DNA of 64,000 nt, taken from assembly GCA_964016885.1 (NCBI GenBank), contig OZ024758.1, forward strand, positions 14,012,001 to 14,076,000, read 5' to 3'. A program made the position numbers and the translations under genes. This DNA is from Eledone cirrhosa. Its lineage: Eukaryota. The notes below the pieces were generated by a model. It was not told the DNA's origin. It was given only the letters and a program-made list of their open reading frames with translations, and did not search any database. The stretch's first letter is position 1. Each line of letters begins with the position of its first letter. This document shows positions 23,773-29,284 of the stretch, one piece after another.

Positions 23773-23835
<63 letters not shown>

Positions 23836-24145
23836 TAAATTGAAACAAAATGAAAACGAAATTTCATTTCTCACTCTTAGTATGGCACTTACTTAAATGT
23901 AAGTATGCATGTATACGTACATACATATATGTATACAGACGTACAGTAGCATGCACATATATATATATATATATACATATATACATACATATGCATACAG
24001 GTACACATACATATATGCACGTATCAGTTTAGCGGCGCTTATTATAACGTCACTTTGTTCGTTTGTAAACAAACTGAACAGCCTGAATTTATGCCATACG
24101 GTGTTAAGGCAACCACGTCACCTTTTTGTTCAACACTGACACAGG

Positions 24146-24190
24146 AACGATGTACTAGTTTCAAGCTTGTTAGCTATCATCAGCACCGTT
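24146..24190 (-). ncRNA. Type I hammerhead ribozyme (family E), first of 7 minus-strand copies
   Basis: Reverse complement of 27572-27616. Confidence 0.9.
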
Positions 24191-27100
24191 TACCCATCTG
24201 CCAGATAGTTGAACGTTCGAAAGTATATACTTTCCTTATGAAAATTAACGGCTGAGCAGCCTAATTTGCATATTGAGTGAGTTAAATCGGTCAGGCATAC
24301 CGAAAACGATAAATTGAAACAAAATGAAAACGAAATTTCATTTCTCACTCTTAGTATGGCACTTACTTAAATGTAAGTATGCATGTATACGTACATACAT
24401 ATATGTATACAGACGTACAGTAGCATGCACATATATATATATATATATACATATATACATACATATGCATACAGGTACACATACATATATGCACGTATCA
24501 GTTTAGCGGCGCTTATTATAACGTCGCTTTGTTCGTTTGTAAACAAACTGAACAGCCTGAATTTATGCCATACGGTGTTAAGGCAACCACGTCACCTTTT
24601 TGTTCAACACTGACACAGGAACGATGTACTAGTTTCAAGCTTGTTAGCTATCATCAGCACCGTTTACCCATCTGCCAGATAGTTGAACGTTCGAAAGTAT
24701 ATACTTTCCTTATGAAAATTAACGGCTGAGCAGCCTAATTTGCATATTGAGTGAGTTAAATCGGTCAGGCATACCGAAAACGATAAATTGAAACAAAATG
24801 AAAACGAAATTTCATTTCTCACTCTTAGTATGGCACTTACTTAAATGTAAGTATGCATGTATACGTACATACATATATGTATACAGACGTACAGTAGCAT
24901 GCACATATATATATATATATATACATATATACATACATATGCATACAGGTACACATACATATATGCACGTATCAGTTTAGCGGCGCTTATTATAACGTCG
25001 CTTTGTTCGTTTGTAAACAAACTGAACAGCCTGAATTTATGCCATACGGTGTTAAGGCAACCACGTCACCTTTTTGTTCAACACTGACACAGGAACGATG
25101 TACTAGTTTCAAGCTTGTTAGCTATCATCAGCACCGTTTACCCATCTGCCAGATAGTTGAACGTTCGAAAGTATATACTTTCCTTATGAAAATTAACGGC
25201 TGAGCAGCCTAATTTGCATATTGAGTGAGTTAAATCGGTCAGGCATACCGAAAACGATAAATTGAAACAAAATGAAAACGAAATTTCATTTCTCACTCTT
25301 AGTATGGCACTTACTTAAATGTAAGTATGCATGTATACGTACATACATATATGTATACAGACGTACAGTAGCATGCACATATATATATATATATATACAT
25401 ATATACATACATATGCATACAGGTACACATACATATATGCACGTATCAGTTTAGCGGCGCTTATTATAACGTCGCTTTGTTCGTTTGTAAACAAACTGAA
25501 CAGCCTGAATTTATGCCATACGGTGTTAAGGCAACTACGTCACCTTTTTGTTCAACACTGACACAGGAACGATGTACTAGTTTCAAGCTTGTTAGCTATC
25601 ATCAGCACCGTTTACCCATCTGCCAGATAGTTGAACGTTCGAAAGTATATACTTTCCTTATGAAAATTAACGGCTGAGCAGCCTAATTTGCATATTGAGT
25701 GAGTTAAATCGGTCAGGCATACCGAAAACGATAAATTGAAACAAAATGAAAACGAAATTTCATTTCTCACTCTTAGTATGGCACTTACTTAAATGTAAGT
25801 ATGCATGTATACGTACATACATATATGTATACAGACGTACAGTAGCATGCACATATATATATATATATATACATATATACATACATATGCATACAGGTAC
25901 ACATACATATATGCACGTATCAGTTTAGCGGCGCTTATTATAACGTCGCTTTGTTCGTTTGTAAACAAACTGAACAGCCTGAATTTATGCCATACGGTGT
26001 TAAGGCAACCACGTCACCTTTTTGTTCAACACTGACACAGGAACGATGTACTAGTTTCAAGCTTGTTAGCTATCATCAGCACCGTTTACCCATCTGCCAG
26101 ATAGTTGAACGTTCGAAAGTATATACTTTCCTTATGAAAATTAACGGCTGAGCAGCCTAATTTGCATATTGAGTGAGTTAAATCGGTCAGGCATACCGAA
26201 AACGATAAATTGAAACAAAATGAAAACGAAATTTCATTTCTCACTCTTAGTATGGCACTTACTTAAATGTAAGTATGCATGTATACGTACATACATATAT
26301 GTATACAGACGTACAGTAGCATGCACATATATATATATATATATACATATATACATACATATGCATACAGGTACACATACATATATGCACGTATCAGTTT
26401 AGCGGCGCTTATTATAACGTCGCTTTGTTCGTTTGTAAACAAACTGAACAGCCTGAATTTATGCCATACGGTGTTAAGGCAACCACGTCACCTTTTTGTT
26501 CAACACTGACACAGGAACGATGTACTAGTTTCAAGCTTGTTAGCTATCATCAGCACCGTTTACCCATCTGCCAGATAGTTGAACGTTCGAAAGTATATAC
26601 TTTCCTTATGAAAATTAACGGCTGAGCAGCCTAATTTGCATATTGAGTGAGTTAAATCGGTCAGGCATACCGAAAACGATAAATTGAAACAAAATGAAAA
26701 CGAAATTTCATTTCTCACTCTTAGTATGGCACTTACTTAAATGTAAGTATGCATGTATACGTACATACATATATGTATACAGACGTACAGTAGCATGCAC
26801 ATATATATATATATATATACATATATACATACATATGCATACAGGTACACATACATATATGCACGTATCAGTTTAGCGGCGCTTATTATAACGTCGCTTT
26901 GTTCGTTTGTAAACAAACTGAACAGCCTGAATTTATGCCATACGGTGTTAAGGCAACCACGTCACCTTTTTGTTCAACACTGACACAGGAACGATGTACT
27001 AGTTTCAAGCTTGTTAGCTATCATCAGCACCGTTTACCCATCTGCCAGATAGTTGAACGTTCGAAAGTATATACTTTCCTTATGAAAATTAACGGCTGAG

Positions 27101-27571
27101 CAGCCTAATTTGCATATTGAGTGAGTTAAATCGGTCAGGCATACCGAAAACGATAAATTGAAACAAAATGAAAACGAAATTTCATTTCTCACTCTTAGTA
27201 TGGCACTTACTTAAATGTAAGTATGCATGTATACGTACATACATATATGTATACAGACGTACAGTAGCATGCACATATATATATATATATATACATATAT
27301 ACATACATATGCATACAGGTACACATACATATATGCACGTATCAGTTTAGCGGCGCTTATTATAACGTCGCTTTGTTCGTTTGTATTACATTTAAGTAAG
27401 TGCCATACTAAGAGTGAGAAATGAAATTTCGTTTTCATTTTGTTTCAATTTATCGTTTTCGGTATGCCTGACCGATTTAACTCACTCAATATGCAAATTA
27501 GGCTGCTCAGCCGTTAATTTTCATAAGGAAAGTATATACTTTCGAACGTTCAACTATCTGGCAGATGGGTA

Positions 27572-27616
27572 AACGGTGCTGATGATAGCTAACAAGCTTG
27601 AAACTAGTACATCGTT
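27572..27616 (+). ncRNA. Type I hammerhead ribozyme (family E), first of 4 plus-strand copies
   Basis: AACGGUG-CUGAUGA-uAGCU aaca AGCUu-GAAA-CUAG-UA-CAUCGUU; predicted cleavage after A27609. Confidence 0.9.
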
Positions 27617-29284
27617 CCTGTGTCAGTGTTGAACAAAAAGGTGACGTGGTTGCCTTAACACCGTATGGCATAAATTCAGGCTGTTCAGTTTGTTTACAAA
27701 CGAACAAAGCGACGTTATAATAAGCGCCGCTAAACTGATACGTGCATATATGTATGTGTACCTGTATGCATATGTATGTATATATGTATATATATATATA
27801 TATATGTGCATGCTACTGTACGTCTGTATACATATATGTATGTACGTATACATGCATACTTACATTTAAGTAAGTGCCATACTAAGAGTGAGAAATGAAA
27901 TTTCGTTTTCATTTTGTTTCAATTTATCGTTTTCGGTATGCCTGACCGATTTAACTCACTCAATATGCAAATTAGGCTGCTCAGCCGTTAATTTTCATAA
28001 GGAAAGTATATACTTTCGAACGTTCAACTATCTGGCAGATGGGTAAACGGTGCTGATGATAGCTAACAAGCTTGAAACTAGTACATCGTTCCTGTGTCAG
28101 TGTTGAACAAAAAGGTGACGTGGTTGCCTTAACACCGTATGGCATAAATTCAGGCTGTTCAGTTTGTTTACAAACGAACAAAGCGACGTTATAATAAGCG
28201 CCGCTAAACTGATACGTGCATATATGTATGTGTACCTGTATGCATATGTATGTATATATGTATATATATATATATATATGTGCATGCTACTGTACGTCTG
28301 TATACATATATGTATGTACGTATACATGCATACTTACATTTAAGTAAGTGCCATACTAAGAGTGAGAAATGAAATTTCGTTTTCATTTTGTTTCAATTTA
28401 TCGTTTTCGGTATGCCTGACCGATTTAACTCACTCAATATGCAAATTAGGCTGCTCAGCCGTTAATTTTCATAAGGAAAGTATATACTTTCGAACGTTCA
28501 ACTATCTGGCAGATGGGTAAACGGTGCTGATGATAGCTAACAAGCTTGAAACTAGTACATCGTTCCTGTGTCAGTGTTGAACAAAAAGGTGACGTGGTTG
28601 CCTTAACACCGTATGGCATAAATTCAGGCTGTTCAGTTTGTTTACAAACGAACAAAGCGACGTTATAATAAGCGCCGCTAAACTGATACGTGCATATATG
28701 TATGTGTACCTGTATGCATATGTATGTATATATGTATATATATATATATATATGTGCATGCTACTGTACGTCTGTATACATATATGTATGTACGTATACA
28801 TGCATACTTACATTTAAGTAAGTGCCATGCTAAGAGTGAGAAATGAAATTTCGTTTTCATTTTGTTTCAATTTATCGTTTTCGGTATGCCTGACCGATTT
28901 AACTCACTCAATATGCAAATTAGGCTGCTCAGCCGTTAATTTTCATAAGGAAAGTATATACTTTCGAACGTTCAACTATCTGGCAGATGGGTAAACGGTG
29001 CTGATGATAGCTAACAAGCTTGAAACTAGTACATCGTTCCTGTGTCAGTGTTGAACAAAAAGGTGACGTGGTTGCCTTAACACCGTATGGCATAAATTCA
29101 GGCTGTTCAGTTTGTTTACAAACGAACAAAGCGACGTTATAATAAGCGCCGCTAAACTGATACGTGCATATATGTATGTGTACCTGTATGCATATGTATG
29201 TATATATGTATATATATATATATATATGTGCATGCTACTGTACGTCTGTATACATATATGTATGTACGTATACATGCATACTTA

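Follow-up and report, generated by a model that had tools for sequence, protein, structure and literature searches.

The 474-bp tandem array in this window, a 64,000-nucleotide stretch of the Eledone cirrhosa assembly, is best explained as a non-LTR retrozyme that was copied by two-site-primed rolling-circle reverse transcription with the enzyme of a Penelope-like element (PLE). A probability of roughly two in three is given to this reading, which combines predicted self-cleavage, putative RNA circles and a presumptive partner enzyme. It agrees with the preliminary description, in which a non-LTR retrozyme, probably PLE-moved from a circular template, had been proposed. The array is one recent insertion, and its 7.5 and 4 units are the two opposed arms of that insertion; no other feature of the locus is as informative.

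Anatomy of the insertion

Two 474-bp tandem arrays of 7.5 and 4.0 copies were resolved by TRF. They are opposed head to head, with 7.5 units on the − strand and 4 on the + strand, and are embedded in (TA)n (Table 1). These unit counts had been given correctly in the preliminary description, which missed the opposite orientation of the two blocks. Its 11 hammerhead copies in 474-bp units were recovered (7 on the − strand and 4 on the + strand), as were its three substitutions, which are exactly those found against one reference unit (24052, 25536 and 28829). No credible open reading frame had been seen, and no ATG-started frame in the circularised unit was found to exceed 76 codons.

The unit is a pure tandem without an internal region and has no LTR, primer-binding site or polypurine tract. 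No tRNA match was found within the array, and the reverse transcriptase and GIY-YIG frame of an autonomous PLE is absent from the unit. An 11-bp candidate for a target-site duplication flanking the array was left uncounted because its word is found repeatedly in the flanks (11 copies in 502 nt and 14 in 746 nt) and is indistinguishable from the flanking repeat. RTE-like LINE frames occur in the window.

Table 1. Features of the retrozyme insertion, its target and a nearby PLE (window coordinates)
Feature	Position	Strand	Remarks
Left target	23331..23833		(TA)n microsatellite with CAGA interruptions
Left arm	23834..27385	−	7.49 units, 7 hammerheads; has the "long" 3' end, 318-319 nt past cut site
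Tail of left arm (~60 nt)	23835..23896	−	Extends past the end point of the other arm
Head-to-head arm junction	27385..27386		Blunt, overlap-free; 5' ends at unit positions 86 and 251 past cut site
Right arm	27386..29284	+	4.006 units, 4 hammerheads; has the "short" 3' end, 253 nt past cut site
Type I hammerhead, extended stem I	27548..27634	+	Core 27579-27609; predicted cut after A27609; recurs every 474 nt
Predicted self-cleaved 474-nt monomer	27610..28083	+	Cut site to cut site; two ends paired in fold
AT-rich simple-repeat hairpin within unit	27745..27859	+	Its length determines unit length and is often private to one insertion
Right target	29285..30030		Same (TA)n microsatellite, extends further
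5'-truncated PLE-A	44884..46969		GIY-YIG end and pLTR with own minimal hammerhead; two-armed in (TA)n, 60-nt tail on one arm

The hammerhead motif

The type I motif parts were present as previously claimed, namely stem I, the core CUGAUGA, stem II with an AACA loop, GAAA, the palindromic ACUAGU and GUA, with the predicted cut after 27609. The core pattern at the observed spacing gave 11 matches against 0.01 expected (100 shuffles), and all 11 full junctions in the window carry a type I hammerhead. The Rfam model check suggested earlier did not bear the motif out, as a hammerhead was not called at gathering score and the best ribozyme match was Hammerhead_HH9 at 18.5 bits (cut-off 52, E 0.14). 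Some miRNA-like Rfam matches were set aside because they arise from the AT-rich hairpin. The isolated 47-61-nt motif folded no better than shuffles (z −0.7 to −1.3). The whole monomer folded at −159.5 kcal/mol (−155.9 in circular form) with a z of −8.95 that was matched by 0 of 100 shuffles and derives in part from the AT-rich hairpin.

The base of stem II is closed by a U.U pair. Stem III consists of only two pairs around a 2-nt loop and therefore cannot form inside one molecule, and weak monomer activity is predicted from the U.U base together with this loop. Across 163 units from 84/90 loci, all invariant core positions of the hammerhead were present, and subfamily-wide changes were confined to N7, loop II, a G.U to A-U pair and outer stem I. 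Covariation was weak and not significant (one pair with two-sided change; score equalled by 14 of 500 shuffles). Judged from sequence, the changes seen across subfamilies appear compatible with a ribozyme, for which self-cleavage is predicted.

A dispersed family

Family counts were obtained as exact-pattern matches in the assembly. The 38-nt ribozyme core gave 10,264 matches, dispersed in small arrays (reversed control, 0), and the first 20 nt after the cut site gave 15,796. The first 100 core matches formed 51 clusters, with 15 strand switches of the −/+ kind versus 1 of the +/− kind. An ordinary satellite, which would form one or a few long single-orientation arrays with unfixed ends, was rejected since the family is dispersed, short, two-armed and phased; a single satellite locus, named in the preliminary description as an outcome that would count against a retrozyme, is thus not what these dispersed core matches represent. 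The subfamily of the window copy accounted for 1,758 matches, and older subfamilies at about 82-95% identity share the same build. The earlier view of a very young family therefore holds for the copy and its subfamily and fails for the family as a whole. From four contig sets of unspecified kind, only the family and its variant sites could be read.

Unit lengths in the family are about 455-540 nt, and private lengths (459, 465, 471, 472 and 474) persist through whole young arrays. The supposition that 474 nt lies beyond the described range was not upheld, as units of 150-450 bp are reported for animal non-LTR retrozymes (PMC7229834) and of 51-972 bp in a vertebrate retrozyme survey (bioRxiv 10.64898/2026.07.22.740005).

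One array, of about 52 kb in a single orientation on contig C3, has uneven unit lengths and a dead GUG cut site and is a satellite-like derivative; 71 of the 72 matches to the dead-GUG variant lie inside it and 1 outside. It has the appearance expected if PLE-type insertions of about one unit had grown in tandem at the DNA level by slippage, unequal exchange or conversion, with the ribozyme as a relic, and local amplification of PLE termini has been proposed (bioRxiv 10.64898/2026.07.22.740005). As an account of the family, such growth is considered quite unlikely, because the units of young arrays are near-identical in both opposed arms, including the simple-repeat length, the array ends stay phased and the changes are all ribozyme-compatible.

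Arm ends, tail and inversion

Ends were mapped in 108 fetched regions, which were picked by ribozyme or subfamily patterns and lie nearly all on contig C1. These contained 201 arms, with 88 ending long, 78 short, 30 elsewhere and 5 at a region edge, so that 166/201 end at two fixed 3' sites about 256 and 318 nt past the cut site. The sites are ~60 nt apart, the tail is 56-65 nt long and the 5' ends are variable. The expectation of dispersed arrays in different phases was accordingly correct as to dispersal and incorrect as to random phase, since only the 5' ends vary. Adjacent pairs in the 108 regions were divergent in 69 cases versus convergent in 2, and the divergent pairs comprised 45 long+short, 1 long+long, 0 short+short and 23 unclassifiable. 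The long+short combination was thus found in 45/46 classifiable inverted pairs (21/21 in the first set, which included the window). A TA run was present within 30 nt of 156/166 phased ends, compared with 427/3,240 background windows (13%).

By analogy with described PLEs, the one-sided tail together with the inversion is the PLE "tail plus inversion" signature. PLE insertions have the same build of a tail and an inverted arm (PMC8557442), and for a PLE in vitro, two internal start sites were demonstrated on both nicked strands (PMC11167929). Either arm can be the longer one (11 versus 9 of 21), as predicted by two independent primings, and fold-back was ruled out on this ground as the general source of the inversion. 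A few arm junctions are symmetrical (L037, L057).

Identity of the template

The 5' ends do not pile up at the cut site. Among the 15,796 20-mer matches, the preceding A was missing in 216 and the preceding T in 117, leaving the two preceding bases intact in 97.9% of copies genome-wide, and 28 of the 30 inspected copies in which they were not intact had point changes. The arms of one insertion differed at 8/662 informative sites, compared with 6,939/21,676 between loci. Both arms share one haplotype, with one template per insertion.

A linear self-cleaved monomer, on which the enzyme would jump from the 5' end to the 3' end to make concatemers, is very unlikely to have been this template. A single such molecule would still yield identical units, and the right arm of one array, L207, ends 3 nt from the cut site. 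Jumping should, however, leave stops and ragged joints at the cut site, yet 289/295 unit junctions examined were seamless and the preceding two bases are kept as given above.

At 5/5 of its junctions, L207 also lacks the 7 nt that precede the cut site, a ribozyme-killing deletion, and its four full units are identical. No other array in the assembly carries this variant. Deletions before the cut site were not enriched (22 matches at 18 loci versus 16 at 16 for a control stretch), and at 5/6 deletion loci with more than one junction the deletion was found at one junction only; L207 is therefore a single case.

Also weighed as template, for the same retrozyme and PLE-type enzyme, was multimeric RNA read through from an older array and left uncut. 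The fixed ends, tail, inversion and read-through follow from it just as well, an anole PLE used mainly uncut RNA in vitro (PMC11167929), and the ribozyme looks weak by its U.U pair, 2-nt loop and isolated motif fold. This template is nevertheless judged unlikely. It requires parents as long as their daughters with the private variant in every unit, whereas the L207 variant occurs in one array, and it gives no reason for the retention of the ribozyme across subfamilies. On this view the 52-kb dead-ribozyme array should also have been a productive source, yet the variant of that array has the one outside match.

Penelope-like elements in the same genome

Two intact, abundant PLE families, PLE-A and PLE-B, were found in the genome, and the (TA)n target is common to both and to the retrozyme. 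PLE-A is an intact Neptune-type PLE with a 60-nt tail, 19 and 20 of 50 ends falling at two sites separated by 60 nt, and PLE-B has sites 40 nt apart and a 40-nt tail. The whole 1267-aa PLE-A protein gave no Pfam match, its last 165 aa gave a GIY-YIG match, and residues 560-1267 were grouped by the Atlas with RT/HTH_animal/GIY-YIG clusters (0.96). The truncated PLE-A copy in the window, outside the array, belongs to this candidate enzyme-donor family. Seamless 4.3-kb tandems exist for the PLE itself.

No significant similarity between the unit and PLE-A was found by blastn (best matches 10-24 nt, E 0.07 or worse), no DNA homology was found to PLE-B, and folding gave no stem-loop common to the retrozyme and PLE-A tails. 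The match in tail length may be due to chance, as two of several PLE families were compared. An older ribozyme variant had been considered as the pLTR of an autonomous PLE and was dismissed, since 40/40 regions turned out to be retrozyme arms and the ribozyme was joined to a PLE frame in 0/40.

That the mover was a non-PLE retrotransposon, such as the RTE-like LINEs of the window, or that the inversion was a repair fold-back, is regarded as extremely improbable. The RTE-like frames, the lack of a detected sequence link to PLE-A or PLE-B and the few symmetrical junctions would fit these explanations. They are opposed by the one-sided tail between two fixed start sites, described as PLE-specific (PMC11167929), by the occurrence of the same one-sided tail and (TA)n target in both PLE families here, and, for fold-back, by arm lengths that are independent of each other.

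Comparison with known systems

Like the animal non-LTR retrozymes of coral, mussel and axolotl (PMC7229834) and those of the vertebrate survey (bioRxiv 10.64898/2026.07.22.740005), the array consists of tandem units that are a few hundred bases long, non-coding and each equipped with a type I hammerhead. Also shared are a GC below 50%, thousands of dispersed copies, a strongly self-paired monomer and PLEs in the genome. A U.U pair likewise forms the base of stem II in axolotl HHR_Amex2, whose cleavage is weak as a monomer and good as a dimer, and 8/9 predicted Xenopus retrozymes did not cut (bioRxiv 10.64898/2026.07.22.740005). RNA circles have been demonstrated for those retrozymes and are putative here. 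The fixed 3' ends, one-sided tail and inverted arms are undescribed in the main texts of PMC7229834 and bioRxiv 10.64898/2026.07.22.740005, and literature searches on retrozymes, including those of molluscs, on PLE tails and on cephalopod hammerheads listed no account of retrozyme tails or inverted retrozyme arms. According to a review, retrozyme repeats hold no motif pointing to the mover (PMC7761336). No pLTR homology to PLE-A or PLE-B was found here, unlike in the 24/57 Xenopus families that match known elements (bioRxiv 10.64898/2026.07.22.740005).

EN+ PLEs (Neptune, Penelope/Poseidon; PMC8557442, PMC11167929) share with the array the tandem and inverted 5'-truncated arms, a tail at one end, two internal start sites, AT-rich or (TA)n targets and a type I hammerhead. 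They differ in a unit of 3-4 kb and a quoted tail of 30-40, compared with an ORF-less 474 nt and a tail of ~60 nt here, and, unlike theirs, the retrozyme arms can run to 12 or more full units. Non-autonomous Chlamys PLEs such as MRC1 (PMC8557442) are likewise non-coding, multicopy, head-to-tail and PLE-moved. Their 3' end resembles an autonomous partner and they mostly lack a hammerhead, whereas each unit of the array has a hammerhead, and similarity to PLE-A or PLE-B was not detected. Newt satellite 2 (via PMC7229834), compared by description rather than by direct alignment, has a minimal palindromic stem III and a dimer-acting hammerhead in tandem repeats, and differs in being ~330 nt long and amphibian.

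Proposed mechanism and significance

In the mechanism proposed, arrays would be transcribed and the hammerheads would cut, most likely as dimers via the palindromic stem III, and the monomers would be ligated into RNA circles of ~460-540 nt. As suggested by the insertion anatomy, a PLE reverse transcriptase/GIY-YIG protein, most likely from the Neptune-type family with the 60-nt tail, would bind this RNA in trans and nick both strands of (TA)n. Each nick would prime cDNA at one fixed RNA site, ~256 or ~318 nt past the cut, where the mapped arms end. Both cDNAs cross the former cut site, and the same circle would presumably serve both for a variable number of turns. The two cDNA ends would then be joined, frequently through 1-7 nt of microhomology, and the product would be two opposed concatemers with a one-sided tail.

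In a bolder form, for which the chances appear even, a dimeric Neptune-type PLE enzyme would prime twice on one ribozyme-made circle and spin off both concatemers. Tail length would then be an enzyme fingerprint that does without homology, L207 would be the fossil of a mis-ligated circle showing germ-line cutting at the predicted site, and the PLE's own 4.3-kb tandems may arise likewise.

In the papers considered, the case for the mover enzyme is made from co-occurrence and pLTR similarity. Here the insertions carry a PLE-specific signature at two mapped positions, and the same genome has an intact candidate enzyme, from a PLE whose tail is of matching length. If the proposed reading is true, the array would exemplify in nature the copying of a circular RNA into multi-kilobase DNA at a selected target, and "tail plus inversion" would provide a simple check for coral, mussel, axolotl and frog retrozymes.

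The hammerhead array and its family

Two arrays of the 474-bp unit, pointing away from each other, were found in the window (see the table), and the 11 hammerheads of the preliminary description were recovered as 11 matches to the core pattern against 0.01 expected. Comparison across both arrays gave the same three substitutions relative to one unit (24052, 25536, and 28829), and the first reading also held for stems I and II, for the core (CUGAUGA, GAAA), and for the GUA site. The hammerhead motif was not called in an Rfam search of the window. The base of stem II is a U.U pair, as in axolotl HHR_Amex2, which cuts better as a dimer (PMC7229834). 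Because stem III consists of only two pairs around the 2-nt center of its palindrome, the hammerhead of the 474-nt unit would require a dimer, an established rule for such minimal-stem-III hammerheads (PMC7761336). The predicted monomer (cut site to cut site) folds at z −8.95 with paired ends in structure prediction.

In the 3.0-Gb genome, exact matches numbered 10,264 for the 38-nt ribozyme core (reversed control, 0) and 15,796 for the first 20 nt after the predicted cut (q1-20, where q counts nucleotides past the cut); the subfamily marker of the window copy had 1,758 matches. The family is dispersed, the first 100 core matches forming 51 clusters over 67 Mb of contig C1 (the window lies on C19). 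Copies range from 100% down to about 82% identity with unchanged build. The suggested extreme youth therefore holds for the window copy and not for the family, which is long-lived, with several successive subfamilies active. By every tested feature, including a hammerhead per unit, dispersal, and a self-paired monomer, the element is a non-LTR retrozyme, as had been proposed, with self-cleavage and RNA circles predicted for it.

Coordinates of features in the window and elsewhere in the assembly (G000; C, contigs; L, fetched regions)
Feature	Sequence	Position	Strand	Remarks
474-bp array	Window	23834-27385	−	Seven hammerheads
474-bp array	Window	27386-29284	+	Four hammerheads
PLE-A family copy	Window	44884-46969		Same two-armed/tail form
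PLE-A	G000:C3	66543500-66560000		L112, L113
PLE-B	L179	604-1611		Also L200-L201
Retrozyme array, dead GUG cut site	G000:C3	12271878-12324503		~52 kb, single orientation (L187, L204, L205)
Two-armed element in (TA)n	Window	32492-36327		Adjoins 200-N gap
Hammerhead-like motif	Window	36196	+	In two-armed element
Hammerhead-like motif	Window	32554	−	In two-armed element
Hammerhead-like motif	Window	14192	−	Near tRNA-like SINE head
tRNA-like SINE head	Window	13767-13830		Rfam 29.9 bits
Second tandem hammerhead family	L034	4806-6171		310-nt unit, inverted arm
56-58-nt repeats	Window	47553-49004		Inverted around GC-rich 75-nt repeats
LINE-type reverse transcriptase frame fragments	Window	11581-13464, 52066-54241, 55738-57486
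Reading frame	Window	5721-6191

Insertion anatomy

Anatomy was analyzed in 108 fetched regions, picked via ribozyme or subfamily patterns and all on C1, a few of them adjoining. In the alignment, the 3' ends of arms (single-orientation tandem blocks) fell at q300-320 in 88 cases (the long end, mostly q313-318) and at q250-265 in 78 (the short end), with 30 elsewhere and 5 at a region edge. Adjacent arms were divergent in 69 pairs and convergent in 2. Both ends could be classified in 46 divergent pairs, of which 45 were long+short and none short+short; the sole long+long pair (L223) has an arm that still continues at the region edge. In junction sequences the two ends map to q253-259 (short) and q315-318 (long), giving a tail of 56 to 65 nt. 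A TA run lay within 30 nt beyond 156 of 166 arm ends, compared with 427 of 3,240 distal windows. The 5' ends are scattered, many arm junctions overlap by 1 to 7 nt, and either arm can be the longer. The window insertion conforms, with the long end left and the short end right.

Penelope-like element (PLE) insertions are described, in PMC8557442 and a preprint, as frequently including a second, 5'-truncated copy in inverted orientation, and as having a tail of 30-40 bp at one end only. For an anole PLE, PMC11167929 reports that the enzyme makes a nick in each strand of AT-rich DNA and that two internal RNA start sites bound the tail. Inverted arms, a one-sided tail, two fixed ends, and a TA-rich target are shared by the retrozyme insertions, whose anatomy is the PLE signature. 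Mobilization by a PLE-type enzyme, the mover named in the preliminary description, is strongly indicated by the long+short pairing, TA-run targets, tail, and inverted arms (probability, roughly 90%).

Two intact PLE families were examined. PLE-A has a 4,286-nt unit with a 1267-aa frame and a CxxxxCxxC motif ahead of the GIY-YIG domain, which would make it Neptune-type by the motif definition in PMC8557442. It is very abundant (37,685 first-look candidates), has a minimal hammerhead in its pLTR, and occurs in both tandem and inverted copies, including full units in seamless tandem plus an inverted arm. Many matches are −/+ pairs with equal open-frame lengths, i.e., near-perfect palindromes. Diverged relatives in L037, L065, and L077 have 52 to 72% amino acid identity, with a tail region about 85% conserved. 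PLE-A ends at two sites 60 nt apart (19/50 and 20/50), and the retrozyme tail length agrees with this tail. PLE-B has a 900-aa frame at 3,127-nt spacing, ends 40 nt apart (a 40-nt tail), and likewise a (TA)n target; a simple pattern found no canonical hammerhead in its copies in L179 and L200-L201. Since the 474-nt unit has no significant sequence similarity to PLE-A (nor to PLE-B) and other PLE families exist, PLE-A is a candidate partner, with the odds on its being the mobilizing enzyme evenly balanced.

Template

Cut-site TA precedes 97.9% of q1-20 copies genome-wide (30 inspected exceptions comprised 28 point changes and 2 truncations), and 289 of 295 unit junctions are of normal length. 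A single pass on a linear monomer was ruled out by these data. Informative sites disagreed in 8 of 662 comparisons between arms of one insertion and in 6,939 of 21,676 between loci. Private variants were common to both arms in 13 cases and limited to one arm in 101, the latter fitting the prediction of later mutation. A private unit length runs throughout young arrays (459 in L206, with a 14-nt deletion in both arms; 474 in the window), L208 has 472 in 11 full units, and in older arrays the length differs from unit to unit. Each insertion was copied from one template variant, and that template was probably a circular RNA.

At L207, all five junctions lack the last 7 nt up to the cut site, and these five are the only matches to this variant within its subfamily; the four 465-nt units of L207 are identical and its long and short ends normal. 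Since the deletion would keep such a DNA unit from being excised as a monomer, the simplest source would be a monomer that was first trimmed, then ligated, and only afterwards used as a template for copying round the circle. Such cut-site deletions showed no overall enrichment, and, unlike L207, five other multi-junction deletion loci have the deletion at one junction only.

Ribozyme conservation

Constraint was assessed in 163 units from 84 of 90 loci, changes present in 20 or more loci being counted as shared. The shared changes affected N7, loop II, outer stem I, and one pair that went from G.U to A-U, with none in the core (post hoc chance figure for this placement, 0.003). Pairing holds in 98.2% of cells, but no significant two-sided covariation was seen in this sample. 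Judged from sequence, the ribozyme is kept across subfamilies.

In the ~52-kb C3 array, each of the 25 units read carries GUG as its cut site. The array contains 71 of the 72 genome matches of this variant, indicating that it grew in place, with at most one copy elsewhere; it is a retrozyme turned satellite. It starts just after a long-end site and stops at one.

Neighboring features

No long frame was seen in the second two-armed element of the window. The 310-nt family of L034, unrelated to the 474-nt family, occupies one (TA)n run together with an insertion of the latter, and a further recurrent hammerhead-like motif family occurs in L037, L040, L045, L059, L066, and L077. The LINE-type fragments are presumably RTE-like. 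The last ~60 residues of the reading frame resemble a SOCS-box exon, which could put the array within or close to a gene.

Significance

PLEs have been proposed as movers of retrozymes (PMC7229834; PMC7761336; bioRxiv 10.64898/2026.07.22.740005), and no description of tails or inverted arms in retrozymes was found in the accessible parts of these sources or among the papers listed by literature searches. The value of the element is that it turns the PLE-mover hypothesis into mapped, testable positions.
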